DNA of 64,000 nt from Curvularia clavata (GCA_023920165.1 CP089280.1:1674001-1738000), one strand, 5' to 3'. Counted from the stretch's first letter, positions 13,401 through 34,845 are shown. Program-made: numbers and translations. Notes: generated by a model from the letters alone, not told the origin.

Positions 13401-13631
13401 ATTGGAAAAGGGTCTCGCATAGCGCCAGGTATGCTTTGTTCCCAAGCGCCTCTAGGCTGGGCTTGCCGCGATTATGCTTGAGGATATGGATAAGGTCTTT
13501 GAGGCCGGTCGTTCGGTCGACCACACGCGACGATTGGATCAGGACTGCGCTCTGTTAGCACGTACGCATGCGCTCGAGGCGACAATTTGTGAGGGCTTAC
13601 GCTTTGCGTCCTGAATGTTGGTGGCCCCCAT
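4476..13631 (-). CDS. TEL1: ATM/Tel1 PIKK-family serine/threonine kinase (multi-exon)
   Basis: Spliced start MGATNIQDAK-LLIQSSRVVDRTTGLKDL (TAN-like; ATG 13631). ORFs 12064-13524, 11651-11899, 7114-11601, 6616-7059 and 4476-6587 join across short GT-AG introns. Kinase motifs KSGNDDLRQD, GLGDRHCHNIL, HIDLG, VPFRLTRD; FATC end DERNLAVLYMGWASYA. Confidence 0.96.
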
Positions 13632-13945: not shown

Positions 13946-16900
13946 ATGGCTGAAGAAGACAGCCTCGCCGCCCTCCAGGGCCTCCACCGCGACCTTTGCG
14001 CCCACATCGACCTGCAGCTGCCGGTGCTCGAACGACTGCTGCTGAACCTCGAAGCGCATTTGGAAGAGCTCAAGACACTGCTGGACAAGAAACCGAAGAA
14101 CGACAAGAGCAGACAGGCTCTGGCTTCCGGTAAGTCGCCTGCCAGGCCGTGTGCAGAGATGAGTGCTGACCGCGCCAGGCAAGATCACCATTGACGACAA
14201 CGAGTACGAGGTCAATGATGACTTCAAGCAACAGACGCTCGAACTCGCCGATGCCCTGGATCTCGATGAACTGGATGCCGCCGCTCTCTTCCTCGGTGCC
14301 CAAAGCGAAGCCCGCGAGCTAGACCGCTCCCAGCTGCAGACGGCCGTAATCCGCTTCCACCGCCGCCGCGAGTATGTCCTTTTGTGCGTGCGCATCCTGA
14401 TGAAGACGGCCCTAGACAGCGACGATGCTAAGGTGGAGGGCCTGCCCGTACTGCAGGAGGCTGTCCAGATGATTGTGGGTGTGCACGGCACAACAAACTT
14501 GGCCAACGCATTTGGTTTCTGGGCCAAGTGCTTGACAAGCATGGAGGCAGTAGAGAGGTGGCTGCAATTCATTGCCGAGCGTGTGCAGAGCACTCAGGTC
14601 GTGGGGCAGGTACCGCTGCCGGGCTTCGTGGAGATTATGGATTTCCAGCGCCAGAGTCTGACTAGACAGCACGAGAATCTGGCCGCCATTTGCACCCACA
14701 TGATCAAGCCTGGATACGTCAATCTCGACAACTACAAATCGCTGCTTGCACGCGCCAAGTCACTCGATCGCCATGACCTCAATACAATTCACTACGTCCC
14801 TATCCTTCTCCGACTGACATCCTGGGTCGCCTCCGACAGCAATAATGTCACATTGAGGGAAGCGCGCAACTTGCACGACTCGCTGATGAGCGGGCGTGAA
14901 AGTGACAACTGGTTACTGAGAAATCTCCACGCGGCGACTCTCACGTGGTGGCTGGCTGAGTACAGTGGACGCTACATGGACCCCAATACCCAAGACCCCG
15001 CATTGCAAGGCATCAACTTTGAAGAAGAGGCCAATTCGCGATCTGATGTCTTCCTCAAGGCTCTTGGTGATGGCGCATTCCACTTCATGCTTTCAGTCAG
15101 CCAGGATGTGCGCCCAACGCGCTGGTATGACCCCCAAAAGACGAGCATGTTGTCAACGCTCCTGCAAGACACAGCCGTTCTCAGCCGAGACTCGGTGCAA
15201 CCTGAAGACTTTTTCAAGGAGCTCCTCATGGAGCAGCTGCAAACTTTCGTTGATTCCTTCATCACGCACATGCCGGATACACTACGTAAGCTAAAAGCCG
15301 AGGAAGACGATCAGCGCCGACGACTGCAACTCCACTTCCAGCGGTCGACCGGAGAGTACCCTCTTCATCTGGAACGATTCATGGTCATTGTGGCCTACGC
15401 ATTCGATGGCTTTCCCGATGCCGCCGAAGATTTCTGGAGCGACAAGGAAAGCAATCTGTACGGATTCCTACAATGGGCGGCCAAACGTCAACCTACCCCA
15501 CGGATAGCCATGTTTTGCGAGATGCTCCGAGCCATTGGTACTGGAGAGACAAATGCCGAGGCCGCTCATCGCTTCCTGCTTGAAGAGGGCGCGTCTGCCT
15601 CTGGCAAGATCCGTCGAACGAGCTCGCTAAGTTATACGACCATTTTCAACGAATTGTGCGAGTTCGAAAAGGACATCCACGAGCCGAAGAAGGCCATCCA
15701 AGCCGGAGTCTTTGCTGCCGCAACGAATCCGATAGACCAGATTGTGGAGCCGGAGAGTGCAACTATGCTAGAAAGCTACTTCCGACTCATTTCGCACATA
15801 TGCCGACAAAGCCCCACCGCCCGAAACTGGATACTCGAAGTGAAGGAATATGATTTCGCCAACATCTGCTTCGGTCTCTGCACTGACAAAGTCGAAAGCG
15901 GATTGCGCGCAGCTGCTTTTGACGCGCTCTCCGCCTTGATGGTAGGCAAGGATGCTGCCAGAGCAAATGCAATGTGGACCATGCTTGATGACTGGACGGT
16001 AAACGGCTTTTATACCGGTTCCAAGCAGAATAACACGCTCGGCGCTGCACCGAGGGACGATCTATGGCCTACGCTTGCAGATGGATACGACGAGTCGATT
16101 GCCCTGGTTCGCTTTCTTCATGCGCTAGTGGAACCATACCCCGAGAACGAAGGCCTCAACGACAGCCTGCCGTTCCCTGAAGGCTTAGGCTCTACGCGTA
16201 GAATGCCTGGTATCGAGAGCTATATCGACTTCGTCATGCAACAAGTTTTTGCAGAACGCTCTTTGGATGTACTTGATCCTCTGCAACGCAACGTCATGCG
16301 ATGGACATGTCTGCGTTTCATGGTAATCTGTCTCTCGACATTCAATGAGAACCTCGTCGTCTTTGCGAACAAGTCGAGCATACCCGTTGACGACGTAATT
16401 GATCCTTCGTCCCTCGCCATCTATGTCACGCTCCACCCATTCGCGCGCGTCATGGAGTGGCTGTTCAACGACAAAGTCCTCAAGGCCCTTTTCGCCGCCT
16501 CTCACCACGACGTCACCGAGGTCGATGCTGCCCTTTCAGATTCGCCCTTGATCCAATCTCTCATGTTGAGTATAGAGGTGATGGATCTGGTGATGAAGCT
16601 CCAGGCCACGTATTTGGACATTGTCAGACCAGTCTTGAAGCAGCAAACCACTTTCCAGCATTACCCAGTGTCTAATCTGTCTCTAGCATCGTTCGAGGAC
16701 GCAATCCTAAACAACCTTCAAATTGTTGTTGACCTCGGTCTTTACTGCGGCACAGGTCACGAGGCCTTGACCATTGCATCCCTTCAACTACTTGAGAAGA
16801 TGGCTTCTTCCCGCAAACTTGCAGTATCACCTGCAGGCTTTGGACAGCGATCTGGCCGCAGCAAAATTGTCGGCATCTTGGAGAAGGACAACGAAGCTGA

Positions 16901-19052
16901 GCGCATTGGCCGATCTCTCTCGAGTTTGATGCGATTCAGCGCCGAAGAGCTTGAGGCTGGCGAAGAAGCCTCTGGATACGTTGTCAAGCTTCGCATACTA
17001 GACTTCCTCAACAGCTGTCTGGCTGCTGTATCTCTCCGCCCGACCATTGCTCACATTCTTCTTGGTTTCTCTTGCGGAACAAACACTGTGCGAATTGCCG
17101 ACGACAGTCTGTGGTCCAATGGACAGGCCTTATTCCACAGCATTCTTCTCCTTGGCGTCGAATATCCTGATAACGATGGAGAACAATTCTTGGCCTGGAG
17201 ATCTGCAATCAAAACGCGGTGTTGGCAAGTGCTTCAGAAGTTGTGGCGCTCGCCACTGACCAGTGCGATAATCATGGAGGAGCTGCGTGACAATGAGTTA
17301 CTGTTCATTGAAGCGCCCCAACTTACCCCCATCACCCTCGACATACCCTGGGATGGAATGTCTCTAGCTCAAGGGCTCGAAGTCAACCCTAGCGACTATT
17401 CGGCATTCTTCTCGGGGCCACCGGCACTCGCCCTCCAGAATTTTCTCCAACGACGGGCCGCTTTTCTAGACTATGAGTCAAGGGAACTTCGTTTGACTGT
17501 CAAAGAAAACAGACCAACGATGAAATCGAGGATCCAGTCACTGCTTCTTGGCACTACCATAAGACCTGGCGAAGACGCTACGCCAAATCCCAACATTTTT
17601 GACTTGTTCGACTTCATAGAGTTGGTCTACCCAGAACGCGCTCTTCCAGATCAACACAGGTTCTTTGAAGGCGTGAATCTTGAATCATGTCAAGAAGACA
17701 AGGAGGGCTGTACTCTGTACTCGATACCATTGCTAGAACAAGTCATCCGCTTGAAGTTGAAGTACTGGAGAAAAGATGGCTTGCTGAAGGAGGAGGAGCA
17801 CGAAATAGCGCTCGCGGAACAGGCTGAGCTCTTGATGGCCATATTCGTGGACTGGAACCGTCGTACTCAGCTGATGCGCTACCATAAGGACATCCTTCAG
17901 TCATGGGTCCAGGTTGTGATGGTAGCCGTGCACAACTGCGATTTTGACAACGGGGCACGAAGCTCCTTCATCCTACAGACCTTGCAAGTCATTCTTCCGA
18001 AGCTTGAACAGTCATATGCCGCGGATATATTCACCGCTCTACAACTCGCCAGCCTCGCAGAGTCTCTCATTCAGAAAGTTGACTTTGAGTCTACAGCCTT
18101 CGACAAAACTGGTGACTTTGCCAATGACCGACTATCGCAGCTCTTCCGTGCTGCACTCCTGGGCATCTACAGCCCAGTTTCTACACCTGAACTGCGGGAG
18201 TACTGCTACCAGATTTGCTTCCGTTACATACATGGTACTTCCCAAAAGGCTACTCCAAACTCTGTTCTTGGCCGCCACACACTCAACGCGATCAGGAACT
18301 GCGGTAGCCATATGCTCGAAGTGATTTGCGACGATGCTTACAGCGGCCAAGGAACATGCAAGGTTTCCGCGCTCCTTCTTCTCAATGCATTCGTAGCAGT
18401 TGCAACTCGCCAGTCGTCAAAGTACATTCTCGAAAGCTTTGTTTCTCTCAACTTTGTCGGTGTACTTGTCGACAACATCAAGCACATTCCAGAGGAACTC
18501 CGCACAGCTATCGCATCGCAAGTGACCGTTCTCCTCTCATACTACGACGCTAGCCTTGCGCTCCTTCTCCGTATATGTCAGTCTCGTCTGGGAGCAGCGC
18601 ACGTGCTCAATGCAGGCCTCTTCCCAGCTATCCGCGAGTCTCATATCTTCTCCGTCGATCCAGACATTGGTCTCGAATTCGACGACCCAAATGCTTTACG
18701 CAAGTACTACCAGCTTATGTTGGCCGTACTACGTGTTATCAACGCTGCGGTTATCGCCAGGGGACGGCAAAATGATCAGACTGTGTTCCAGGCAAGGGAG
18801 TTCCTGAAGGACAACAGACACAGCATGGTCAGCGTCTTCAAGAGAAGTGTCAACGTCGGAGTCGGAGCAGGCGAAGAGATGCAACAGGACCTGGTAGACT
18901 TGGTGGATTGCTGGACGGTGTTGGTTGACGTGACTGGGTTCTTGCAGGTAAGCCATCGACATGACGGTGAAATTGTTCGACATGGAACTAATGTATTGCA
19001 GTACGAAGATGAGTCTAGTTTGAAGAGGGCGAGGCCGAGCATGTTCTCATAA
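13946..19052 (+). CDS. NUP192: Nucleoporin Nup192/Nup205 family
   Basis: ATG 13946 (MAEEDSLAALQGLHRDL), intron ~14130-14178, then a long helical ORF with YEVNDDFKQQTLELADALDLDELDAA and TLHPFARVMEWLFN, typical of fungal Nup192. A final short intron precedes YEDESSLKRARPSMFS*. Confidence 0.9.
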
Positions 19053-19786
19053 GCAGTACGCTTAATGAATGCTGCTATCTGGAGGATGAAATGATCATTT
19101 ATGCGCTTGATGGGAATATTTTGTTATGTAATGTGTAGAGAAAGCCGCTTTAAAAGCTTGTTCAACTTGGCCACCTTGCATTTCCTCCTATAATACGATG
19201 CTGAGCATTAAGTGTCCATGTGATATTGCTATGATTTCAAGAAAGACCACGCAAACAGGTGTTAGGAAAGATGCATATGCAAGGGAAATGCATGTCCAAC
19301 TCGTCTACTGACTGCGTGGCGCTCGGAAGAGCGCGCATCATTGTTACTCTTCGGATTGTCTCACCACCGTTTATATCCATTTCCCTAAGTCCCTATCCTT
19401 GTTGTTTACATGTTTAAAGAAAGCTAAAGAAGGGAGTTTCAATTGGACTTTCGAGTCCATGCAGTTGCCAGAGACGTAGTAGAGTTGGGAAAGTTAGTCG
19501 TGGTGCGACTATAAAATGTATATGATGAAGAGCTTGCTATTGATACTAAGTTGGAACAAAATTAATGACTACAAGTTCTTCAGGGCGGTACATTTCTGCA
19601 CGAGCAAAGAGAACGTGCGTGGACGCTTAGCACAAGTGTGATGCATGTGAGGAGTATCAAACGATTAACGAAAATGGGTATCGATACTGATGATGTACAA
19701 CTGTAGAAATTAAAAGAGACTGTGGTGTTACAGTGGTACTTTGTGGACAACCCCCATAGGACCTTGGTTTTTATAGCCACTGCCTC

Positions 19787-21668
19787 TTACCCGTCTTCAT
19801 CTTCGTTCCTCCATATTGATGCCGAATTATAATCAGAGGATTGCACTAAATCCACTAGATCGTTATGGATCTCCTCATTGCTCTGAGAAGACTGAGTGAT
19901 GTCGGTAATCTTTACTGGGGAGCTGACTGGTTCGGCAGAAGAGCTAGGGGCTTCGTCATTGAAGACATCAGATCTACGCTTCAAAGGGGAACCTTGTGGG
20001 CTTGATCCAGATTCGACACGAGCCCTCTTTTTCGCTAATGAACCTTTTGGACGGCCTCTCGGTCGCTTTAGTATAGCATTGTCATCGCGCGCTGGAGAAA
20101 TAGGATCTGTGTTTGACCTTGGAGGAGTGCTCAAGCTACTCTTTAACGAGCCACCAATTGGTTTAGCCCAGTCGAGAATTTGTCTGATCTTCCGACTAGG
20201 CTGATCAACGGTGGTGGAGGGACTCGGGTTCAAAGTTTCTATGATAGCTGCCTGTGTGGCTTCAAATACCATAACCTCATCATCAAACTCGGTCGCTTGT
20301 TCTTCAGGCAAAGATTTTGGGTCTTCCTTTGGTTTCATGAGACCCTTGCGATGCAGGATTTGTCTAGGGCCAGATCCCTCTGCTTGACCTGATCTGTCGG
20401 CGTCGTCACTGCTCTTCCTCTTTCCAGGCCTTTTTGGAAAATCACCACTTTCCACTCTGGCGCGCAGCTCGTCCGTAGAAGGAAATGCTCTGGTGGCGGC
20501 CCACTCAGGGAGCTTGCTAGCGAAATTTTTCCACATTGCACGTTGTGACACTGCGATTGGTGCAGGACACTTGTAAAAATCCGTCCGATGATTCGCATTA
20601 TCCAAACCAGCTTCTATGCAGTTCAGGCAACGAAAGAGGGTCTTGTCATATCGATTTGGGCACTGTGAAGTTGCTCCTGGACCTGGATGCTTTTGGGCAC
20701 AAACGATGCATGGCCAACTCTCTTCTTTAGATAAGTTGGCGTTGGGGCACTTTGTGTATTCTAGCGTGTGATCCGGACGACCACATCTTAGGCAGAACTG
20801 AGGCGTGCCTCGAGGGTCGTACGCCCTAGACTCAGTCAGTATGCCAGTTGTGTGTGTGTGTGTGTGTGTGTGTGTCAGGCTAGACTCACATTGCTAATGC
20901 ATGGTCGCCCGAAAAGAAAAGAGGCTGCTGACAGGCCTTCATAGCCTCACCAGGGTCCATAAATCCCCACAAGAACCTCTGTTGTGTGTACTTGACCTCG
21001 TTGATATCGAGGCCAGTATCACGCTTCATCGAAGCAAGGTAGTCCTTGCAGTTCTTAAGGTACTCATTGGCCAAATTGTATTCGTTTAGTATAACCCAAT
21101 ACATTTCGGGCTTGCGTTTTGAGTGCCATGGTGTAAGGCCGAGCTTTACCATCAAAGTAGCAAAATTGTTGTCTTGAATCAGTTGCTCATAGATCGGGCG
21201 CGACTGGGTAGTAAGATGCAGTTCTTTCGTGTGATGATACACTCGGACGGATGTTATCTGGTTATATGGTTCGCTCAGCGATCTCAACCTCTTCAGAACT
21301 CCTTCAGGTCCTAAATCCGAAATTTTAGGAAAGTCCTTCTCACCAAGTACGATGCTGATCCTGGGAAGAATGGCTTTCAGTGCGCGGGTTGGTGCCGGGT
21401 TCGGGTCGCGTTCTAGGCTTTTGGAGATTTTCTTTAATCGATTTACTTCTTCAGTCATGGTGTTCATAGCTTTGTTGAGCTGAGCTGCAATTGCGGCTGA
21501 TAGCTCTTTCAGCTTCGCCTCGATTACTCGCTCGACTGCTTGTTCCAAACCCTGTTGGACAAGAATCTCTGGGTGTAATGCGTTTCCAACATGTTGTTGG
21601 GAACAGGTATTCGGGGTTTAGTCTGCGGTGTGGCTTGTAGAAGCGGAAGATTTGTCTGGGAGATTCAT
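19787..21668 (-). CDS. Spliced LINE ORF1/gag-like protein: coiled coil, three CCHC-type zinc knuckles, AT-hook; in-frame TAA at codon 17 if ATG 21668 is used, alternative ATG 21467
   Basis: ORF 21548-20886 joins the downstream frame through intron 20889-20826 (GTGAGT...ACTGAC...CTAG). This gives AMAYDPRGTPQF-CLRCGRPDHTLEYTKC...CIVCAQKHPGPGATSQC...CLNCIEAGLDNANHRTDFYKCP, in frame with ORF 20605-19787, which contains KRPRGRPKGS. Confidence 0.8.
20849..20875. repeat. (GT)n microsatellite inside the intron of the gag-like gene
   Basis: Uninterrupted TG dinucleotide run. Confidence 0.95.
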
Positions 21669-23165
21669 CTTGCCTACAAAGTTGAAAGTTGAAGACTTCT
21701 CAAAAATAAGAGAGTTTTGAGGATGAATTTTGTGGTGTTCGTGCTGTCGGACCTTAAAGAATTGTGAGGACTGCTTCCTGGCGATAATCAGTGAATTGCG
21801 GATCGAGTAACAGCAGCTGGAATTATATCTAACTTATATTGCAATGGCATCCATCACGATAATGACTATGCCTTCACCTCTGTGGCGCAATTTCTTCCAC
21901 CTAGATAGGTAAAGCATTGATGGAAGACTTTTCAGCGCTGTGCCCATCTCGTATTGTTGGTGGGGAGGGCGGCCCGTAAGAATCAGATCTCAATCCAACT
22001 CTAGGAAGCAATCATTGGACCCATCTTTACCCCTAGTAATCCAATTTTACCATCCTAGAGGCTATAATTATAGCGCTCGAAACTTATCTATGTCTCTCTG
22101 GATGTACATGATGCTATGCGAAATCATTTCGTGGTGAAGGTCACCATCTGCGTCCTAACAGAGCAATACCCAATACTTGCCCCAATAAACTCTAATCGCT
22201 TCCCAAACTATGAAGTTATCAGAACCTTGTTTTTTTCTTTTGACTCGGGGTTGAGCATTGTTGATCAATATCAGCGTACATAGCAATCCGCGGAAAGCTG
22301 ATAGGTGCCCCTATTAACATCTCATATCCTTGCATGTTTACTACTCCTGTATCGGAGGAGGTGATCTGGCAGTTCCGTGCGCCACAGAGATTTCATGGCG
22401 CTCCATCACCAGGGTTCATCGCCTATGTTGTTTGATTCGCTGCCAAAGCTTAATTTCGCTTGGTCACAATCCCTCGCCACCACTCACGAAAAAGCTGTCC
22501 ATGGGGTACTGACTCACCTAACTATCGTGTGAGTTCAAACGCTGTAAAATGTCTACGAAGACTCATGTCAGATGCCTCTAGGAGATGATTATCACAATAG
22601 TAAGAAAAAAAAATGAGTATGGGTAGAGTGATACAGTCTCGAGTGTTTGCAATGGCCTCTGGTTTCCCGTTGGGAATGTGTTTAAAGTTTCAAGATTCGT
22701 ATGTAGTACGTATCTAGCTTGGCTTGGCCTGGCTTGATCCCCACATCACACGACTTGCCTTGATAATCTTGACCTGGCCTAGTCATTGATAGGCCGGGCT
22801 TTCGGATGTTACCTATCATTCATTGTTTCTTCCGCAACGCCTCTTTTAACTTTGATATATGCCTGCAAAACACCACGTGCAGTTTGGACATGGAGTTTGT
22901 AAAAGGTCTGAGGCCATCTAGCTTCCAATTCTGGCGGGTGGGTGATCAGTCATTGTTGAGTAAAGGTGCCAGTCAATTTGTATCTAATCCTTGTCGTTTA
23001 TACGTGATTTGCCAAACCCACCACGTATCTGTTACGAAAAAGGGGGATCAATTGAGGCTAACAAGCCGTGAATCAGACGTTCAACTCCGTGCTGTGCATA
23101 TGCTCATTGCCTTGCGGAATTGACTTAAAAGCTGCGGTTTCCCACTTCACAGCTTCTCTTGTTTC

Positions 23166-23357
23166 ATGTCACATAATTCATTCGCATACGGGCCCATCCA
23201 GCGATTTCTGACCAGCATGACAGAGACTTCACAACAGCAAACACGAGAGAAAGAATATACTTGCAACAAGGGGAAGGGACCCAGCAGCAACAGCAATGAT
23301 AAGGGAAAAACGAAGAAGAAGAAGAAGAAGAAGAAGAAGAAGAAGAAGAAGAAGAAG

Positions 23358-23388
<31 letters not shown>

Positions 23389-26300
23389 CTCGGGTGAGCT
23401 GAGGCTGCTGTCTCATCCTAACGTATGTGGGTTGACTGATGTTTGTTTAGAAGCCAGAGCCCCTCGCAAAGGTCAGTATTTGCTACAATCCAGCTTTCTC
23501 TGTTGAATGATTAATAGAAAATTGACCCAGGGCAATCTCAAGTTCATGCGAAACCAGTTGACTCTGAAAAACGCAAACTTGGGCCGGGACGAAAATGGCT
23601 AGCTGATTTGCAGCCAGGTCACTCCCTGAAGACAGAGGTTCTAGAGGACGGACAATGCTTTCTCGTATCGGTCCAAATGAGATCTGCCAAACCGCGCCTC
23701 CAAAGCCTCTTCAACTGGGTAAAGACACTGTCTAGACCGCCCGATGTTATCGCCATCCAGGATCCTCCTTTGCAGCTCGCTTATAGCTCCTTGCCATCGT
23801 ACCAGACATGGTTTCGCGGAGACGACGGCGAAGGTAATCCTGTTAGCATCGGAGAGAAAGATCACCCTTATCACTGCGACTATATTCCCCCGTACCCGAA
23901 AGCTCATGAAAAGCTGGCTATGAAGCAGCACTCTAAGACCCAGCCGGACGGGTGTAAGCAGCTGGCCAAAATTGCGTTTTTGGTGCATAGTTCCATCCAG
24001 GAATGGAATGTTTCTGAGCCTTCGCACGGCCCCAATCGAGGCTTGGTCGCAACATTGCATATTGCCCTCGCCCGAGGTTCACTCAACATCCACAACTTCT
24101 ACAATCACAATCACCCAAATGGGCGGCTAGACGTCGAGGAACTTTTGAAGCCCTGCGGCAACAATCAAGATGCCCATATAGTCGTTGGTGACAGCAACCT
24201 ACAACACCCTCTCTGGAGTCCTCACGCCGAAGGACAGAATGCTCATAAAAAGGCCAAAGATCTCGTAGCAGCAATGGAGGCCACGAATATGGTATGCAAG
24301 AACGATGGCTCCCTTACCTTCGCTCGTGGCAATCGCAGCGGTGGTGAATATGCATCTTCGATCGACATCATCTTGGCAAGCGGGTTCCTGGGTGACCAAT
24401 CCTGCTACGAAGTCCTCGATGTCCACGGGTACGAAAGCGACCATGCTGTCACTTCGTTGAAAGTCGACATGGATCTAGACCGCAAAATGGGCCTAAAGTT
24501 CTTCTGGGATGAGACTAATGAAGCATTGTATAGCAGAGATGTGGCTCACCATGTCAATACGTTGGCTCTTCCCTCAAATCCCAACAGGGCCGACTTAACG
24601 CACGCGCTGGAGGGTTTTCGAAAGATCATCTATGGAGCAATCGAGAAACATGTACCCGTCCGGCATGTTTTCGAAAACACTCATGCCAAAAAGTCTACTA
24701 TGTCTATCTCTAGCGCCATAAGGACGGCAAATTGGCGGAGGGCTGTAGAGCGCAAATCGGAGGACCCTCAAGGCGTTCATTCTTTAGCTAAAAGAGCTAT
24801 CCTATGGGGCTCGCCAAGACCGCCAAAATGTACTCCGGATTTTGTACCAGCTCCAGACAAAGTAATCACGGACAACAACGAGAAGGTGAAATGTTACGTG
24901 GAGGCGATTTGGACTCGCACCAGGTACAAAGGCCCCCCCAGAAAACTGCCAACCGATAGCGCCTTTTCAAAAAGATATGTAAGTACACTCAGGCACCGTT
25001 AATTCAATATTTGGTGTCACTGCCAGCTGAATGAAAACAGGCTACGGTTGACAGTAGCGGGACGACTCACACAGCCCAAACGCATACTTCCTCCACGGAT
25101 ACATCTCAATTTCCGTTGCCGTTTCTTCATCCATCTAGGAAACAGCATTTCTCTGATATAAAAGTAGAAGAGGGCGAGGTCGCAAGCCTACTGAAAGGCG
25201 CACCACATCGCAAGGCTTGTGGAGATGATGGTATTCCGTTTGAAGCATTGAAAATGTGTGCCAAGGTCATAATACCTACCCTGACTTGGATCTTTCAAAC
25301 GTGCCTTGATCTGCGCTTACATCCCGACAGTTTCAAGGACTGCATTACCTTCGTCATCCAAAAGCCTGGAAAGGATGCATCACTGCCTAAATCTTACAGG
25401 CCGATCGCGGTTCTGAACACACTGGCAAAACTTCTGGAGCGTATAATAGCTGATCGATTAAAGGCACTTGTTCTTGAAGTGGAAGGTATGCTTCCGTTCA
25501 CACAGTTTGGTGCACCAGGTCGTAGTACGACTCTTGCTGTAGAGTTGTTGACTACGAAAGTTTACAGCGGGTGGATACAAGACAAGAAGGCCAGTCTCCT
25601 TGGTCTCGATCTCACTGGTGCGTATGATCACATCGACCGTATAAAATTACTAGATAAACTAATATCGCTTGGCATACCTGACTGGCTGATCGAGATTATA
25701 TGGTCTTTTTTGTCTAATCGCCGCAGCTATATTCACCTTCCTGGTTACGACGGTGAGGAGTACTATATAGACGTTGGCGTTCCTCAGGGGAGTCCACTCT
25801 CTTCGCTCCTGTTCTTGTTCTATGCGGCGCCCCTGCTGGAGCACTTGGCTAAGGACTATGCTGCCGCAACGCTCTTTTCTTACGTTGATGATACCTATAT
25901 CCTCGTAGTCACGTACTCATACCGCGAAAACATCCGCGTTATGGGTGTCATCCACGACCGGCTTTACAACTGGGCAGAGCAGAACGGCATGCGCTTTTCA
26001 CCCACCAAGTATCATATCATGCACTTTGTTAAGCCGTGCACGCGTGTTGACGAAGCTGGTTGCGAGTTACTGCCTTCTATGATTGGTTTCGAGAATTTGA
26101 CTCAAGACGAAAAAGATAACATTCTACAACCGACCATGACTATCCTTGGAGTAGTGTTCGACCAACGACTCTCTTGGGTTGATCATGCAAACTATGTAAG
26201 CCGCAAACCATACCACCCATCATTTACTTACGTATCAACAGATTGTAGGGAAGATTAGGAAGAAGCTGAAGACCTATCAACGCTTTTCTCGGTCAACATG

Positions 26301-27342
26301 GGGCATCACAGTACAAAAACGATACAACCTTTATCATCAACACCTCCTTCCGATCGTTACCTACGCATGCGCCGGCTGGTTTCTCACTGATCCACCGAAC
26401 GAAAAGCGTCATGGGAAACTGAGTTATGGAATTTCCAAATCCGCCATCGATACTCTGGAATCCCTCCAAACAGAGATCCTTCTTTTCCTCTCGAAAGCTT
26501 GGAAACGAACCCCTAGGCAATTAATTGAGAACGAAATGCACATCAGACCGATTGTCTTGAAGCTACATGAGGTCGCAATGAATCACCGTTGCAGAAAACT
26601 GGACTCAAACGAGCATGAGTTTATGCGAAAGACTAGAGGTTTTTGCGAAGTAAAAGGACAAAGAAAGCACCCTCATGACCAAATGGACCGGGTGGTAAGG
26701 AATTATGTGCGCCAAATCTGGGATTACAAGTCGCTTCATTTCGGAGAGGCAGACTGTGAGCGATGTTGGGCAAAACCAGCAACGCGGAAAAAGTGGATCA
26801 AAGATTTCTTCGACCTCGAGCTCTTCGTGGAAGCCAAGGCACAGTTCACCTTCTGGTTACATGTTCAAGCAATCCCGCGTTCAGCAGTTTGGAAGTTCGC
26901 ACAGCCAGCATACCAAGCCAATTACGGCGAGCATACTTTGCATCTGTATTTTGGTTTGGATACCGCCCAGCAAACAATGCTTTTGGGTATGCGCACTGGG
27001 AATCTCGGTGTCAATGCTAATCCAGTCTTCCGCAACGCCATAAAAAGCAAGAACATGAGCTGCCCAAAGTGCGGAGCAACTCTCCATACTGTCAAACATC
27101 TCTTATGCGAGTGTCCGGCTCTAAGCAGGGCGAGGACATATTTGACGGGAGCCGCTGGACACAACGATTTCAACTTGTTCATGAATCGCGATACTGAGCT
27201 CGCGACATCATGGGCCATTGCGCACTTTGGTCTGTCGCAGTTCGATTCGGTCAAGAACAAAAAGAAATACCAATTTCCTCAAAAGCCAAAGGTTGTGCGT
27301 GACGGGATTTTACTAGATGAGAGACAAGGACTCGCCACGTAG
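23166..27342 (+). CDS. Five-exon non-LTR-type APE endonuclease-reverse transcriptase-CCHC protein (~1321 aa)
   Basis: Exons 23166-23393, 23451-23471, 23518-24978, 25041-26195 and 26242-27342. All four introns are GT-AG and phase 0, and splicing gives one open frame. APE motifs DVIAIQDP, HNFYN, VVGDSNLQHPLW, SSIDII, ESDH; RT motifs YRPIAVLNTLAKLLE, LDLTGAYD, GVPQGSPLS, YVDD; thumb STWG...LY...PIVTYACAGW; C-terminal CPKCGATLHTVKHLLCECP. Confidence 0.92.
23313..23387 (+). repeat. (AAG)25 trinucleotide repeat encoding poly-lysine in exon 1 of the RT gene
   Basis: 75 nt of perfect AAG in frame with ATG 23166, ending two codons before donor GTGAGC at 23394. Confidence 0.9.
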
Positions 27343-27636
27343 CATTAATACTATCCTGTTGTCATATCCGGCTTCGGCCTTTTGCGAAACATTTTGAGAA
27401 ACACTTTGGGTTTCATTTTTTATATTTGAATCAAACTTAACGAATACAGTTCGTAAGTATGCTAAGGTAGGTGTTTTTCGAACCGTTTAATGGCTGACTG
27501 CTGTTAGAGACCCAGCCTCCGCAACGCTACATCGGTAAGGAGACGTCTGGTAAGTGAATCGTACCCAGCTGGTCTATAAGGTATACAAGGGAAGACTAAC
27601 GACTATGCAGTCCGTCGTACCCTGCGATTTTATCAG

Positions 27637-28366
27637 TTAACAGGAATTGAAAGGCATGTCGTCCAACCTCTCCCTTACGTCCACCATCTCAACATCCTCC
27701 ATCTCCATGTCGCCGTCCCCATCCACGTCACCATCGTCGTCGCCATCGCCGTCCATGTCTACCTCCGCGTCCGTGTCCGTGTCGTCGTCCGACCGGCGTA
27801 GTCTCGACCGGATGAAATAGAGCGTTGCACCCATCCAAGCCACGCTTTTGTATGTTGATACTTTATCGATTCCACTGAAATATGCAAATATTGACTACTG
27901 CAGCGGATGCCATAACGCTGCCTCCATGTCCATGCACCCATCTGCGATAGCCTTCCTGATCTCATGGGTGTTGTATCCCAGCCATAACCAAACGTCCGGA
28001 GCAGGCAGCCTTGCCGTGTTCTTCTCAATCAACCGGTAGCTGAAGTCGTAAATTCGTAAGAATCATAGCTAAGAACTAGGGTCTATCAAGTATAATAATG
28101 AGATTGATAGTTGATGCGTCTTGCCTATTGATGAGCGCGATCTCCCGGCCTCGCGACTGTCGCAGCTGTATTATATCCACCTGGCATGTATGGCATAGAA
28201 TATAGTCGTCATTGTCGGGCATAGTCGTATCCAGAAAGTTGAGCCATTCAAAGAGCCACTTCTGTAGCTCTGTAGCAACTTTACTTGAGAGCGGCTCATA
28301 GAGAGCAGGCCGGGCGTCCAAAGAGAGAGTGACGGGGACTACCCGTTGTCCGGAGAGATTGGACAT
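27637..28366 (-). pseudogene. Possible degenerate small gene of unknown function
   Basis: Protein-like stretches MSNLSGQRVVPVTLSLD...QKWLFEWLNFL and YRLIEKNTARLPAPDVWLWLGY...HPLQ*SIFAYF...WMGATLYFIRSRL with an acidic tail. They are broken by stops and a frame change, and I found no clean splice solution. Confidence 0.3.
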
Positions 28367-29403
28367 GGTTGGTGTGTAGGATTCCTTTACATTTGTGCAC
28401 TTGTTAACGATTCTAACTTCAGATCTGAATTTGAAGAAGACTGAAGAAAGAGATGGGATGAGCTGAGTGTGCGATGCCGTCGATGGATTTTGCCGAGCTG
28501 GAGATTGAGTGTAAGGGTTATTTTCTGTAGGATCGCTAAGAGTGCTGACTTTCAAAGTCACAAGAGCAGAAGAGCAGGTATTTGTAGGCAGTGTGCGCTG
28601 CTCTGATGCTATGGTAAAGGATCACCAATTTGCTTTTGCACCAACCATTTACTTACAATGAATAGTGTCCTCATCACAACCACGGTTCGACAACTTCAGG
28701 GTTTTCTCTGCCCGTTGTTGGCCGCCCAATGGGCTTCTGCCCATTGGAGTGTAAGTTCATTTATTATTTGTCAACCCACCGATGAAGTGCATACTTATAT
28801 TGTCCAGTATTGTTGTTGTTCTGATTTGGATCTGTACCACATTTTGGATTCGACACGTGAAGCCGAAGGCACTGGAGCCTGAGGCACGGGAGCTTGAGTA
28901 AGTATCCGAAACTCTAGACAGCCTCCCCTATTCATACTGAGATCTATACAGGGCCTCGCGTTCGAATCCCCCCTTGGACATAGTCCTTTTTTGAATTTTT
29001 GAATTTTGGTGGGCTGAGGGGCGGCCTGCCTTTGTTTTGAGACCACTTTTTGATGTTGGCCAATCGCCACAGGCGAGCCAGTTATGAGAAACAAAAACAG
29101 AAATAAATAACCACGGGCCCCTCCCGTGAAAAGAAAACTCCTCACCTCTTCCCTATGCAGTTTCATGCGTGAAATGTTGATGCCTATGCCAAGCCACAGT
29201 GTACCATGGATAGCTTTACTAGTACCCCGCCTGGTCAATATGTGGCCCCAGCATCATCATAAATACTCTCTTCCTGTATTGTCTTCGGCCCATCACTATG
29301 ATACTCACGACTTTAATTCAAATCCGGACAATCCTATCGAGCCATTGAGATCTTCCTAGTTCAACCGGCAATCCTTCGAGGACGCTGCACACCTTCACCG
29401 AGC

Positions 29404-30885
29404 ATGTCGCCATTATTTCGACTACCACGAGAGCTACGAGATATCATTTACGACTTCTATATCCGCTGTGACGGCGGCTACGTGTATAACGCAGAGACCC
29501 AAAAATTCAGGAGGGCTGATGGGGATCCGATTTCCTGTGCACTAGCCCTCACCTGTCGACAAGCTGCGTCTGAGCTGGAAGGACTGGCTTTTCAAGTGAA
29601 CCCAATCACATTCTCGTCTACTCCTATTAGCTCTTTGCGTGAGCAGGTGGCGCTACATCATGAAGTAGCTTGCGCATTCGCCGAAAATGGTTATTTTTTG
29701 ATCTCTCAAACAGGCCGCTTTTTGGTGACGCAAGAGATGCGTGAACGAGTAGCAGAGGCCTATCCCCAATTCGCACCATACCTCGAGATTTGGTTGAAAG
29801 AAAGGGTCCTCGGAGACCGTTGGGGTTGGGAATGGGACTATACTGTTGGTGAAGCTCGATCTATCTGGTGCGATTTTCAGCGGTTCCTAGCGCAGCTTAT
29901 CTCAAGGCACCCAGCCTTGCACGAGACGATCAAGGCTTTACCCGCAAACTCAGGCATTTATATGCCTTCTGTCGATTTGCTACAACGTGATGATATAAAC
30001 TTCGAGCCCTGGCGCATCTACGACAAAACCGAGCTTGAGCGTTTGTCAAACATGCTGTCTTTCTGCCCAATACCCTGGGGTCGGATTCATCCTGAAACGA
30101 AGCTCACATATTCCGCTGCTTCAACAGCTCTTCAGTTTCTCAATAAATGCACCAGGAAGGTCCGAAAACATATTCGCAAAATCATTTTGATCGAGAACAA
30201 GGTTTTAACTGGGAGGTCCGAGAGCTATGGCCGTGGCTTTATACCATTTTGTCGGGAAAACAGATGTCTACATGTGGAACGCCGGGTAAACCTCTGGAGA
30301 ACGGTATTCGGACCTACTTCTGGAGACCAGGCTACTTATACCTTTGGCTGGACTGAGTGGGACGCTAGGCAATTCAAGAACGAACGTCTACGGGCTAGAG
30401 ATGTCACACGGTCAGTTGGAAAATGGATGACTGAGGCTTTGGCATTACCTTCGCTAGGAATGCCCGAGGAATCGTACACCCTTGTCTTCGATGGCAATCC
30501 AGTACCGGAACTGTCTTCGAAGGTCTTCCGCATAATCCAGCGGGATGCCGCCTGGCAAGCTGCGCTTGACGCCTGTTATTCTCGCGGTTTGTTTCCAGAG
30601 GTTTCTTGGCAAATCGGCCGTCGGCAAAACAAGTGCTACCAATTTGAGGGATTACCGGAAGTAATGCAGATGCTCCTGACCGGCAGTAGCTCTCTAATCC
30701 AATGCAATTTTGATCTCGGTGCACCATACGACGTCGAACAGATTCTTGAAGACCATCGCGGTTGGGATTGGGCAACATGGTCTGAATCATGGTCATCACA
30801 CGAGCCGAGCACTTTCCAAACGGAACCGCCATTGCCGCCATGGCATAAGTGGTGTTGGAAGCAATATTACGGTTATTATGATTAG
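29404..30885 (+). CDS. Intronless fungal hypothetical protein with an N-terminal F-box-like motif
   Basis: 493-aa ORF starting MSPLFRLPRELRDIIYDFY, followed by ALALTCRQ. This pattern is typical of expanded ascomycete-specific families; function unknown. Confidence 0.8.
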   Translation: MSPLFRLPRELRDIIYDFYIRCDGGYVYNAETQKFRRADGDPISCALALTCRQAASELEGLAFQVNPITFSSTPISSLREQVALHHEVACAFAENGYFLISQTGRFLVTQEMRERVAEAYPQFAPYLEIWLKERVLGDRWGWEWDYTVGEARSIWCDFQRFLAQLISRHPALHETIKALPANSGIYMPSVDLLQRDDINFEPWRIYDKTELERLSNMLSFCPIPWGRIHPETKLTYSAASTALQFLNKCTRKVRKHIRKIILIENKVLTGRSESYGRGFIPFCRENRCLHVERRVNLWRTVFGPTSGDQATYTFGWTEWDARQFKNERLRARDVTRSVGKWMTEALALPSLGMPEESYTLVFDGNPVPELSSKVFRIIQRDAAWQAALDACYSRGLFPEVSWQIGRRQNKCYQFEGLPEVMQMLLTGSSSLIQCNFDLGAPYDVEQILEDHRGWDWATWSESWSSHEPSTFQTEPPLPPWHKWCWKQYYGYYD

Positions 30886-31679
30886 TTTTCTTTTATCGCT
30901 TGGTCTGGGAATCTGGATTGGGTGGCTTCCAGCAATGTGGCTCTTTATTTGCGGTGACTTATATCAGCCCTAGAATCTAGATAGGAGGATTTAATCTGCT
31001 GAGTTCACATTTTCTTTGCTTATTCCCAAAACTCAAATCATTACCCTCCTGGAGCCAATGCTAGGAGCGACAGAATTCGTCTGGTCAGCAAAACATCCCA
31101 TTGGAGGATGGCTGCATCTCATGCAGTACGATTACATCGACAAATATTTATTTCATGTAGCGCATAATAACAGACTATATTTTACTGAGCGCGCAATGTA
31201 GTGAGAATAACACCGTTGTGTTAACATAAACGGATAATCATGCCGAAACAGTTCGACAGATTCGTCTACACAGGCTCACGTCATTGGTTTTGATGTAGAT
31301 TGTGACAGTAGATTTAGGTCTGCAGTCAATGTGTATGATAATGAGATTGATATGCAAGCAGTAAAATTCAATGTGCTCGTATCCCCTGGCGAAGAGCGCA
31401 GGACATGGCATTGATCTGCAGCCCGAGATTTGGCATATATATTGTCTGACCAAGGTTGTTGCACGGGAGGATATAGTGCCAGAACAAACCACAAAATTCT
31501 AAGTCCGGGCGTGAGAGGTAGTGTTGGACTGGTGACATGACATGGCACGTGCACCGTGTCGTGTTGCGTCGTGTCATGTCGCGTCGTGCCGCCTCGTATC
31601 ACGTCACGAGTGGAAAACCAATATTCCCTCCGTAGCTGGCTTCTTAATACTGAAGCATTAGATCTCTGCACATCTCACA

Positions 31680-32620
31680 ATGCACTCTGAAGAATTCCCG
31701 GGTTTCGAGCTGGTCAGTACCGACGGCAGTTTACTCGACAATGGAAAGGCGACGGCTGTTGCTGGCACAGGCGTTTACTTTGGTCCCAACGACCACAGGT
31801 GAGCACTGTTCTGTCCGACCATGCCATCACGCTCCACTCCTAACCAGCACGTATGTAGAAACTATAGCGAGCCTTTGGGACCAGGCCCGCAGACCAACCA
31901 ACGTGCGGAGCTCAAAGGCGTCTTGAAGGTGTTGCAAATACTGCCCGTCACACAGAATGTGCTAATTGAATCTGATTCTACATATGCTATCATGTGCGTG
32001 ACAGAATGGTATCCCAAGTGGGAGTTGAAAAGCTGGCAGAAGTTCGAAGGCAAGAAGTACAACAACATGGATCTAATCAAGCGCACTGTTCAGTTGTTAG
32101 AAAAGCGCGACGCAATAGGTACCAAAACCTATTTTCGTTGGGTCAAGGGTCACTCGGGCAATCCAGGCAATGAAGCGGCTGACAAGCTGGCTGGTGAAGG
32201 AGCACGGTATGTTTTACAATTGCCATAAACTTGACTAGAATTGAGTGCCAACACAAGCATACCAGGCGCGAACACGTACGACTCTACGGCGAACCCCAAG
32301 AGAAGAGACCTCAGAAGAAGAACCCACAGTTTATTCAGTCTGGCGTCCCATTCGGCTACAAGGTAGTAAGACTTCCAAATGGGCAAGAAGATCTAGAGCG
32401 TGATCAAAACCAAGTAGACAGGTACATACAAGACGGAAAGGCGAGAGCAGAAGAGAGAAAGAGGAAGTGGAAGAAGGTCTCGGAGAATAGACGTTGTAGG
32501 GGAGGAAGTGCAGCACAGCGGGTGGCAATCAAGGCAGCCAAAGCAAACAAAGCTTCCAAGGCGGACCACGAAGAAGCAACTCCAGATCCAGCATCAAATA
32601 ATACCACAGTATACTCCTAG
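31680..32620 (+). CDS. Stand-alone ribonuclease H (RNase HI-type catalytic domain) with a probable basic C-terminal extension
   Basis: ATG 31680; exon 1 VSTDGSLLDNG...GTGVYFGPNDH; intron 31799-31858; then NYSEPLGPGPQTNQRAEL, IESDSTYA, WVKGHSGNPGNEAADKLA (D-E-D-H-D set intact). A 32-nt GTATGT...CTAG intron (32207-32238) would add ORF 32240-32620 in frame; otherwise the gene stops at 32228. Confidence 0.9.
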
Positions 32621-32877
32621 TGTGCAAACATCCATTGATTCATCCATTCCGGTTTTGCGTTTTACGTCCAGAGGCTCGGTTCTCAACACTTCAGGTTCGT
32701 CAGTAGAAATGACTCCCAAATGCGACACACAAGGAACCTAAGCTACAGGATTGAGTTTTCGTGCTATTCTTCACTTCTGTAATACAAATCATATGAATAG
32801 GCTAGTTATGTCCAGATAGTCAAAACAACTAAAACTGAGTGCAATTCCATTAATCTCCCTCTATTCTAAACCCAAAT

Positions 32878-34845
32878 CTATACTTCTAATAAGCTCTTCA
32901 CTTCCTTGACCAGCAGCCGATCCTCAGCTGCCGTTGCTTGAACATTACCCATAGTACCCGCTGCGTCCATGACCCTCCATAGGTCTCTCAGCTCACCGTT
33001 CATATCAGCCCCATACACCAGCCATCCAACGCTGATGACACCCATCTTCTTGTTGTCGCTCCACTGCTCTTCAGTGCTGATGTTTTCGAGCAGCGAAGCG
33101 AGAAGCTCTACCTGCTCGGCATCTGGAAGTTCAGACTCTGAAGGCAAAGAAGGCGAGGTGTTGGCCGTGTACTTCTTCATCCGTATTTGATGGTTGGAAG
33201 AGGTGATGTTCATTGCCAAGTTGAGCGCCGAGGCCTTGAGCGCGGGGTGTTTCTCATCGAGAAGGGCCGTGGTCAGGATTGAGATCAGAGTCGATGAGAC
33301 GGGCGGCGAAAGAAGGTGTGGTATGAAGAGAGGCGAAGAAAAAAGGTTACATGCGAGATGCAAGGTCGTGAGTCGGAGGGGATATGGCGCGCTATCACCC
33401 AGTTTGTCTACGTGGTCTAGTAGATGGTGTACCGTGGCCGGTGTGCCCGTCGCACCTTTGTGCTCTTCTGCGAAGAACCCAGCGACACGGGCATCGGTAA
33501 GAGAAATTCTAAGCAGATCCAGGGCAGTGAACAGAAGCTCGGTTGGGAGTACCGTTGTACTTTTCCTCAAAAATTCGGCAAATTTCGGGAGTTCAGTAAG
33601 CGGAGCCTCAATAGCTCCTGATTTCTCGCGGACCTGGATGTAAGATACAATGGCTGAAACGGCAGGGTCGTTTCCGCTGTCTCCCATCTTCGCAACCAGC
33701 TTGTCCAATGGTGGTACCTTGGTAAATCTGATAGGTCTTTGGCTCTGCCGCATGAGCAAAGGTGTGCTTTTGTCCAGATGCGGGTGCGGGGGGAATGCCG
33801 TATTGAGCAGCATCTCTACGTTGCTACGGAGCTGCCTGGGGTCGGCTCCACTCCATTCGTCTCTTTTCTCGCCCTTGAGGTAAGTGATGAAGGTCGGCGT
33901 CGCACGAACGTTGGGATAGCGACTATTGATCGAGCCCTCTGCGTGGCTGAAATCAATTTTGATGAAGACACACTTTGCTCCTGCTTCAGCAGCAAGTTCG
34001 TCGTATGGCTGGTATACAAGCTTGCAAGGAGCACATGTTGAGCTTGTGAAGAATATGATAGCGCAACGGTCCTTGGCGAGGCCCAGCAAGCGATCCAAGT
34101 CTGTTAGTGCCGTGATGTTGTTAACCTTGCCGGTGCTCATCTCTATTTCAGTCATATTACGGTTGGAGGAAGCTGCTGCTGTCGTTCCGTTCGTAGTACT
34201 CCCACCAGAAGGTTGTACTTGGCCCGCCTGAGGTGTAGGTGCCTGTACAATGGGTCTCATCGCGGCATCAATCTGTGGTTTCAGCATTTGGCCAAATGGT
34301 GTGTTGAGAACAGTTTGCGGGAGAGAGGTAATGTGATCTGGTATTCCCTTGCCAACAAGGAACATGGCGAAATCGTTGGAGAAGTTGTTGCAGTTATGCG
34401 CGAATAGATCGTATGACTGCATCTGTGTTAATTCATGTATTTGAAATCTTTATCCAAATTCACTTACCTCGGGTGTATATATCTTCTTCAGGGACTCTAG
34501 ATACTCTAGGATCACTTCCATGGGAAGCGCAGTCTGCCCAAGCTTGATGATTTCCATAGGCCGTCCATGATGGGTCTGCCCCGCTCTACACGTCTGCACT
34601 CCTTGTCCAAAGTAATACTCTATGCCACCAAAGACGATGGAGGTGTGGTATACGGCATCGATTTGTATTCCAAGGAACGACTGAGACATGCTCTTCGCAA
34701 GACCCTAACAACATTAGAACCAGTTTTCTATGACACGCTTGCACAGTAGCAGCGATGCGCTTTTCGGGATCAAGAGATCAGATTATGCCACTTTATGACA
34801 GGCACTTACTTGGGAAAGGTCATACACGTATAGTTCTACGTCCAT
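32878..34845 (-). CDS. PPPDE/DeSI desumoylating isopeptidase fused to thioredoxin-like and PUL domains
   Basis: Spliced MDVELYVYDLSQ-GLAKSMSQSFLG...YHTSIV (catalytic His)...YDLFAHNCNNFS (catalytic Cys); thioredoxin-like TCAPC...ATPTF; helical PUL-like C-terminus. Confidence 0.9.

Follow-up and report, generated by a model that had tools for sequence, protein, structure and literature searches.

Results

An endonuclease-bearing reverse transcriptase gene

The DNA analysed here, a stretch of 64,000 nt from Curvularia clavata (GCA_023920165.1, CP089280.1:1674001-1738000), which we call the window and in which coordinates are counted from the first letter, carries at 23166-27342 a gene that encodes an apurinic/apyrimidinic-type (APE) endonuclease domain followed by a reverse transcriptase (RT) of the kind found in long interspersed nuclear elements (LINEs). 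Intron 4 of this gene is real, ancient and family-wide, and on the reading favoured below the locus is not a recent retrotransposon insertion. The gene contains three long plus-strand open reading frames (ORFs), at 23518-25002 (frame 1), 25035-26258 (frame 0) and 26200-27342 (frame 1). A preliminary description of this DNA had joined them into an intact gene with four GT-AG, phase-0 introns of 46-62 nt, each holding an in-frame stop, to give a frame of about 1321 aa with its YVDD motif, and had concluded that the RT was long inherited at the DNA level while kept functional. The four segments are as it described them in length (57, 46, 62 and 46 nt for introns 1-4), in their GT..AG ends (donors GTGAGC, GTCAGT, GTAAGT and GTAAGC) and in phase, which is 0 throughout because exons 1-4 measure 228, 21, 1461 and 1155 nt. 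Joining the exons computationally indeed gives 3966 nt and 1321 aa with a single terminal stop, and with YVDD at 25880-25891. The in-frame stops were found inside introns 1, 2 and 3 and not inside intron 4, where read-through reaches a TAG at 26256-26258, 15 nt beyond the end of the intron.

Pfam places Exo_endo_phos_2 (PF14529) in exon 3 (E 3.3e-12, residues 190-311, 24085-24450) and RVT_1 (PF00078) in exon 4 (E 9.1e-31, 25356-26069), and gives no match in exon 1 or in the C-terminal 366 aa. By sequence search, the solved protein closest to the RT exon is human LINE-1 ORF2p (E 7e-20), with R2 proteins next, and the APE exon finds nothing among solved structures at E <=0.01. Both Asp residues of YVDD are invariant in 18 aligned homologues. 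The APE motifs GDxN, xxD and SDH are present. Against the Alternaria dauci homologue, identity is 41% in the APE domain, 64% in the RT and 50% in the C-terminal domain (360 aa), and the linker aligns poorly.

Homologues align upstream of the first in-frame Met of the APE ORF (23677), including the first APE strand, and an upstream exon is needed for this reason. The EPLAK of exon 2 aligns with EALVK in the A. dauci protein (P0002), the N-terminus of which is also Lys-rich. The perfect (AAG)25 microsatellite at 23312-23387 would encode a long poly-lysine run, and RNA contigs break there.

Other hallmarks of a LINE were sought around the gene. There is no upstream ORF1, nor any ORF >116 aa, in 22000-23166; none of the exons encodes the RNase H domain (PF00075) carried by many distant homologues; and 27343-27700 has no A-run or tail repeat. 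A search of 19000-33000 for terminal repeats, target duplications, inverted repeats and tails returned only short, chance-like matches. The window holds one copy of the RT.

Intron 4 is a feature of a clade

Searches with the RT exon gave 257 distinct proteins, of which 251 were classed at the intron-4 junction; the RT tree has 252 rows. The closest relatives are in Bipolaris maydis (P0001, 74% identity in the RT), A. dauci (P0002, 64%), Parastagonospora nodorum (57%) and Pyrenophora teres (56%). The spliced product of the window aligns without a gap over the junction with homologues that are contiguous there. Among the 251 proteins, 188 are contiguous, 31 do not cover the junction, 18 are truncated, 5 have an in-frame insert and 9 fall into other classes. 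Five further rows were then set to truncated by eye and an insect row (P0047) was taken out of that class. After these edits the intron-4 signature is present in 27 of the 251, as a stop 2-30 aa past the junction in 22 and as an insert of 16-17 aa, of the form V[SR]...Q, in 5. Taking the classes as they stood before editing, 22 of 23 truncated or insert rows start after the junction with V[S/R/G/C], the translation of a GT donor, compared with 14 of 188 contiguous rows (Fisher p 2e-19). In P. nodorum the insert is in frame and free of stops.

The window and the 27 signature rows all belong to a single clade, which takes in 127 of the 252 rows; the signature is absent from the other 125. P0224 was omitted when the clade was defined, yet is placed inside it. 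The intron label requires 21 changes on the FastTree tree, a count of little weight, since introns may be hidden in contiguous rows that come from intron-aware gene models. At DNA level, 80 metagenome loci were compared at the junction (71 contiguous, 2 split, 1 with an upstream match only, 6 not reaching it); almost all belong to a distant intron-less subfamily and only L002 is informative. This locus, which is 27-36% identical to the window gene and one of the two split loci (53 extra nt; the other, L079, has 2 fewer), is interrupted at the codon boundary of intron 4 by a 50-nt intron (GTATGT..TACTGAC..TAG). Elsewhere in L002, at 6330-6420, a second frame change with GCTAAC and AG lies just before the Cys/His motif, and may be a further intron with no counterpart in the window.

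Intron 3 appears, from comparison with relatives, to be younger than intron 4 yet shared with some of them. Models from B. maydis translate through the homologous stretch as 21 aa (VS...Q), and the ORF of P0121 (61% identical to the window) begins inside it in another frame, while the RT downstream is 61-74% identical in these proteins; nucleotide conservation irrespective of frame, beside a well-kept RT, makes the stretch intron-like. Two proteins of the Pyrenophora type, P0007 from an ORF call and P0009 from a gene model, are unbroken at this point.

Two short resemblances near the 3' ends of different introns were seen, between 26214-26231 and 28639-28656 (18 nt, 89% identity) and between 28090-28109 and 31333-31352 (20 nt, 95% identity). 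They may be chance matches or remnants of an intron duplication.

Splicing of the transcript

Twenty of the 23 public runs listed contain the stretch, and contigs from four of them (X7, X13, X19 and X20) were aligned to 21500-29000. X7 and X13 are from two different studies and are labelled as RNA by guess only; we treat them as RNA because their contigs lack GT..AG segments both here and downstream, and because the X19 metatranscriptome shares the downstream joints. Contigs lose rare RNA forms, and the strain behind the RNA differs from that of the window.

Contigs from both X7 (3839 nt) and X13 (1519 nt), and so from two studies, lack exactly intron 4 (26195 joined to 26242). Intron 2 is removed in X7, where one side of the joint is 20 nt long, from the predicted donor at 23472 to an acceptor at 23530 and not 23517, 13 nt downstream. 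Thus, of the junctions in the preliminary description, RNA upholds intron 4 and the donor of intron 2, and departs from it at the acceptor of intron 2 and at intron 3, which is retained. Intron 1 lay outside this comparison, as the AAG repeat at 23301-23394 was skipped in aligning the contigs. X7 contig 18 starts at about 23450, which hints weakly at a branch in that place. The X19 (root) and X20 (tick) metatranscriptomes contribute small pieces that cross no RT junction.

Two joints within the RT had not been predicted. One, in X7 (25263->25329, cut +2), takes out 25266-25330, 65 nt, and shifts the frame; the other, in X13 (25255->25331), takes out 25256-25330, 75 nt, in frame, and with it 25 conserved residues. 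Further contigs of X7 and X13 match only at 25896-25930, a stretch of 35 nt directly after YVDD, with unrelated sequence on both sides, and these loose ends are identical in the two runs. Run X23, which shares both organism and study with X13, has almost none of the sampled words of the stretch, which may mean condition-dependent expression if the run is RNA, or absence of the locus from the sample if it is DNA.

Gene order around the locus

Genes of a housekeeping kind surround the RT: a Tel1/ATM-type kinase, Nup192, a PUL/PPPDE/thioredoxin protein, GH79, GDA1/CD39 and CorA. The next gene downstream of the RT encodes a 493-aa protein (P0306), hereafter the partner. In B. maydis the RT (KAJ6207002 and KAJ6194942, in two assemblies) adjoins the partner (KAJ6207003 and KAJ6194943), and the partner (EMD84712), PUL (EMD84714) and GH79 (EMD84715) follow one another as they do here, so that the order RT, partner, PUL, GH79 is that of the window. 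Four P. teres assemblies place the RT 3-5 genes from PUL (e.g. HRS9139_00979/_00984 and PTMSG1_03077/_03074). By accession and locus-tag order, then, the RT keeps one syntenic position in the window, B. maydis and P. teres. P. teres f. maculata is among those that keep the RT gene in place; this form is reported to have no more than vestigial Tad-1 LINE fragments (PMC5915480). The partner itself lies 1-2 genes from PUL in B. sorokiniana, B. zeicola, A. viburni, A. triticimaculans and Neocucurbitaria.

The RT homologues are of similar length, at 1274 aa in A. dauci, 1268-1270 aa in P. teres and 1227 aa in P. nodorum. In P. nodorum there are eight variants of 1227 aa, on 138 contigs in total and with 19 differing residues; other full-length variants measure 1210, 1280 and 1297 aa, and there are two short entries.

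The partner has 73 homologues at E <=1e-20, one of which is named 'HNH nuclease domain-containing' by its source. It adjoins an RT homologue in B. maydis, and in P. nodorum the two are three genes apart. The linkage extends beyond the Pleosporales: Colletotrichum gloeosporioides, C. asianum and C. siamense have the two genes side by side, and a single gene model of C. aenigma fuses them. Some Sordariomycetes have several members of the family. Coniochaeta ligniaria has 3 copies, and Nemania serpens and A. triticimaculans 2 each. Pfam finds nothing in P0306 and, in one homologue, a weak 2EXR/DUF7730 match (E 0.12-0.13). The predicted model of P0306 is good (predicted local distance difference test score 89.3, predicted template modelling score 0.91), and it matches nothing convincingly: Foldseek against the PDB gave a best E of 0.17, and a wide VIA-align search a best Z of 5.9, within noise. 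A complex prediction for the RT C-terminal domain and the partner scored 0.00, which carries no weight either way. No partner homologue occurs in the 80 metagenome RT loci.

Between the two genes lies a transcribed stretch from which five introns are removed, three of the joints being seen in X7, X13 and X19 and two in X7 alone; once these are taken out it has no ORF >74 aa. A 181-aa minus-strand ORF at 28076-28621 is probably spurious, because the spliced plus-strand transcript covers it. From the RT to the partner there are at least nine introns. Coordinates are collected in Table 1.

Table 1. Features at and around the RT locus, in window coordinates
Feature	Position	Strand	Evidence or remark
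Tel1/ATM-type kinase, several exons	4476-13554	-	TAN, PI3/PI4-kinase and FATC domains
Nup192	14163-19052	+	Pfam score 1559 bits
Leader intron, 171 nt, GT..AG	22906-23076	+	joint 22903->23075 (cut +2), X7 record 17, side 60 nt; absent from the preliminary description
Exon 1 (putative), ATG at 23166, Lys-rich through (AAG)25 at 23312-23387	23166-23393	+	sequence only; ORF 23124-23402
Proposed intron 1, 57 nt, GTGAGC..TTTAG, CTAAC and CTGAT motifs	23394-23450	+	proposed from sequence
Exon 2, 21 nt, KPEPLAK	23451-23471	+	first 20 nt of X7 contig 18
Intron 2 as in RNA, 59 nt	23472-23530	+	joint 23469->23529 (cut +2), X7; preliminary end 23517, 46 nt
Exon 3, APE-type endonuclease domain and variable linker	23518-24978	+	PF14529; homologues align from 23548
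Proposed intron 3, 62 nt, GTAAGT..ACAG, frame-shifting, stop at 25000	24979-25040	+	kept in contigs of X7 and X13
Exon 4, reverse transcriptase domain, YVDD	25041-26195	+	PF00078 at 25356-26069
Alternatively spliced segment in conserved N-terminal part of RT, donors 25256/25266, acceptor 25330	25256-25330	+	X13 and X7 joints
Intron 4, 46 nt, phase 0, GTAAGC..AACAG, between RT and C-terminal domain	26196-26241	+	skipped in RNA; homologues
Exon 5, C-terminal domain, Cys/His motif CPKCGATLHTVKHLLCEC at 27061-27114, stop 27340-27342	26242-27342	+	ORF
3' untranslated region, minimum extent	27343-27452	+	end of X7 contig 18; transcript reaches at least 27452
Transcribed stretch, five GT..AG introns (55, 47, 52, 57 and 54 nt)	28055-28952	+	five RNA joints
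Partner gene, 493-aa protein P0306, N-terminal LPRELRDxIY motif	29404-30885	+	next gene downstream of RT

Discussion

Comparison with known reverse transcriptase genes

With LINEs, of which we take the Tad1 type to be the nearest fungal comparison, the gene shares its domain order, with an APE-like endonuclease at the N-terminus, then the LINE-type RT with YVDD, and a Cys/His motif at the C-terminus. It differs from them in having spliced introns and a locus that is syntenic across genera, and in having no ORF1, RNase H or 3' tail and a Gln in place of the Asn of APE motif I. A Tad1-type LINE has an upstream ORF1 and an RNase H domain after the RT, and here neither ORF1 nor PF00075 was found. 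Nor is the gene colinear with its mRNA as a LINE is, for intron 4, the leader intron and intron 2 are removed in the RNA contigs.

The intron-bearing RT groups known to us (telomerase, Penelope-like elements and rvt genes) include none with an APE domain. A literature search that left subscription journals aside found nothing to contradict this, and no description of APE-bearing RT genes with conserved introns. The RT of rvt genes comes without an endonuclease domain. The rvt genes are low-copy, chromosomally inherited and transcribed, as the present gene, single in the window, also appears to be; they differ from it in that our gene has an APE domain, its RT groups with those of LINEs, and its close homologues all combine PF14529 with PF00078. 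In a meeting report, rvt genes are RT-related cellular genes of fungi, bacteria and rotifers that are stated to be under purifying selection and to have a function (PMC10680173). Penelope-like elements are also retroelement-type RT genes that keep spliceosomal introns, but have a telomerase-like RT with a GIY-YIG endonuclease or none, whereas Pfam finds here an APE domain, a LINE-type RT and no GIY-YIG. Drosophila TART, a multi-copy telomeric retrotransposon, has to our knowledge no clade-wide conserved intron position and no syntenic single locus. It resembles the present gene as a non-LTR (long terminal repeat) element with spliced transcripts, for which mapped splice sites are reported (PMC1636488).

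A proposed resident gene and its alternatives

Retrotransposition through spliced RNA removes introns. A LINE-type RT with a conserved spliced intron, at a syntenic position, is for this reason direct evidence of long persistence as DNA, and on this point the preliminary description is supported: intron 4 is real and shared across the family, and the neighbourhood of partner, PUL/PPPDE/thioredoxin and GH79 is, by accession and locus-tag order, the same in the window, B. maydis and P. teres. The reading that we favour, though with only even confidence, is that of a resident, LINE-derived RT gene long inherited as chromosomal DNA within a clade that shares an old intron.

A number of observations weigh against this reading, and most of them are set out below beside the alternative that they would suit. 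There are two others. Synteny was judged by accession and locus-tag order, not from aligned DNA, and the RT is more similar to that of A. dauci (64% identity) than to that of P. teres (56%), when the flanking PUL protein is about 80% identical to both.

One alternative, which we regard as unlikely, holds that the RT and its partner of about 500 aa form one selfish unit, either a composite or site-specific retroelement that uses its unspliced RNA as template or one mobile at the DNA level, and that the shared neighbourhood and the Colletotrichum linkage come from its own spread. It would explain why the RT adjoins the partner in two fungal classes and why the partner is multi-copy in some genomes. 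The RT proteins PTT_08206 and PTT_18465 of P. teres 0-1 are identical, and KAH3960878 and KAH3962983 of P. nodorum are one sequence, possibly within one assembly. Several members of the intron-4 clade (P0014, P0016, P0017, P0022 and P0025, all ORF calls) are contiguous at the intron-4 position, which is what intron loss via an RNA copy would give, and a mixture of intron-bearing and intron-less members is expected if copies arise from spliced RNA. The stop-free insert of P. nodorum would also let unspliced RNA encode the protein. However, the partner stays near PUL in Bipolaris, Alternaria, Neocucurbitaria and the window, and the RT keeps its place in Bipolaris and Pyrenophora. The RT-to-partner stretch has at least nine introns, and the searches found no terminal repeats, target duplications or tail in 19000-33000 and no partner homologue among the 80 metagenome RT loci.

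Still less probable, in our judgement, is that the locus is an old copy of an ordinary LINE in the course of decay, in which the breaks at 23400-23530 and 24979-25040 are mutations bridged by chance GT..AG pairs, transcription is incidental and intron 4 alone is a family feature. Much of the RNA evidence suits it. Both runs that cover intron 3 retain it, in contigs unbroken over 23529-25263 (X7) and 23885-25177 (X13), and the acceptor at 23530, off the predicted model, ends the upstream ORF after 106 aa and leaves it out of frame with the APE ORF. The residues cut by the 65- and 75-nt splices are conserved among homologues. No RNA form observed encodes the full 1321-aa frame, and a productive mRNA for the whole protein is thus missing from the forms seen; the longest ORFs that these forms contain are one of 441 aa for an APE part and one of 602 aa that starts at an internal Met. 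Between the RNA strain and the window there are five coding differences (codons read by eye), four residue-changing and one silent, a ratio with P = 0.035 under strong constraint and 0.63 under none, although the sample is tiny. APE motif I reads VSVQM, with Gln where at least 90% of the 18 aligned homologues have Asn, so that the set of APE catalytic residues is incomplete; the A. dauci homologue has Gln there as well. The B. maydis gene models look damaged, one being of 1008 aa with an internal gap and the other of 1103 aa and flagged 'LOW QUALITY', and the absence of a poly(A) tail fits old age. Thus the four-intron frame is intact on paper only, and the retention of intron 3, the displaced acceptor of intron 2 and the splicing out of conserved RT sequence, together with motif I and the truncated or low-quality B. 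maydis models, do not bear out the words 'intact' and 'kept functional' of the preliminary description.

On the other side, without selection a frame of 4 kb would not remain open, with conservation that follows the domains, in the window, A. dauci, P. teres and P. nodorum. The frame-breaking intron-3 stretch is common to B. maydis and P0121, next to an RT that is 61-74% identical, and the locus is syntenic in three genera. Moreover, the retention of intron 3 was seen in RNA from another strain, in which both X7 and X13 carry a G>A at 24983 (donor +5) that turns GTAAGT into GTAAAT, whereas the window donor is a perfect GTAAGT. A LINE that targets microsatellites, an idea prompted by (AAG)25, was rejected since the repeat lies on one side only.

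If the gene is, as we favour, resident at its locus, it would have been there at least since the ancestor common to Bipolaris and Pyrenophora, as a member of a clade of Pezizomycotina RT genes that share the phase-0 intron at the boundary of the RT and C-terminal domains, and the lineage of the window would later have gained further introns. The gene is transcribed from its own upstream region and spliced as host genes are, and the locus would have been kept beside a gene for a protein of about 500 aa whose predicted fold has no convincing match among solved structures. Selection on the locus would presumably have kept the frame open. To yield the full-length protein, the transcript would have to lose intron 3 and be spliced at the more upstream of the two intron-2 acceptors; this protein might act as a cellular or selfish RT and not as a mobile LINE. 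Most of the RNA sampled is non-productive, which points either to regulation by unproductive splicing or to decay that has started in some strains.

Implications

The locus gives direct evidence that an APE-RT gene, complete with both domains, can last over long periods as part of the chromosome like any other DNA. Should the gene be maintained by selection, it would add an endonuclease-bearing member to the short list of host-resident RTs (telomerase and rvt) and provide a tractable fungal system in which to study what such enzymes do. A broader and more doubtful proposal, which we offer tentatively, is that an old clade of APE-RT genes in the Pezizomycotina, derived from LINEs, has ceased to retrotranspose, has acquired spliceosomal introns and kept them, sits at fixed loci and is functionally coupled to the neighbour of about 500 aa. 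If that is true, these fungi would have a two-gene module, cellular or resident and selfish, built around a domesticated endonuclease-bearing RT, for which, as far as our literature search shows, there would be no precedent apart from telomerase and rvt. Gene finders treat such loci inconsistently, reading through introns, splitting the gene or fusing it to its neighbour, and because of this the family is easily missed or repeat-masked. The conserved partner, linked to the RT in two fungal classes, gives a concrete handle on its function.

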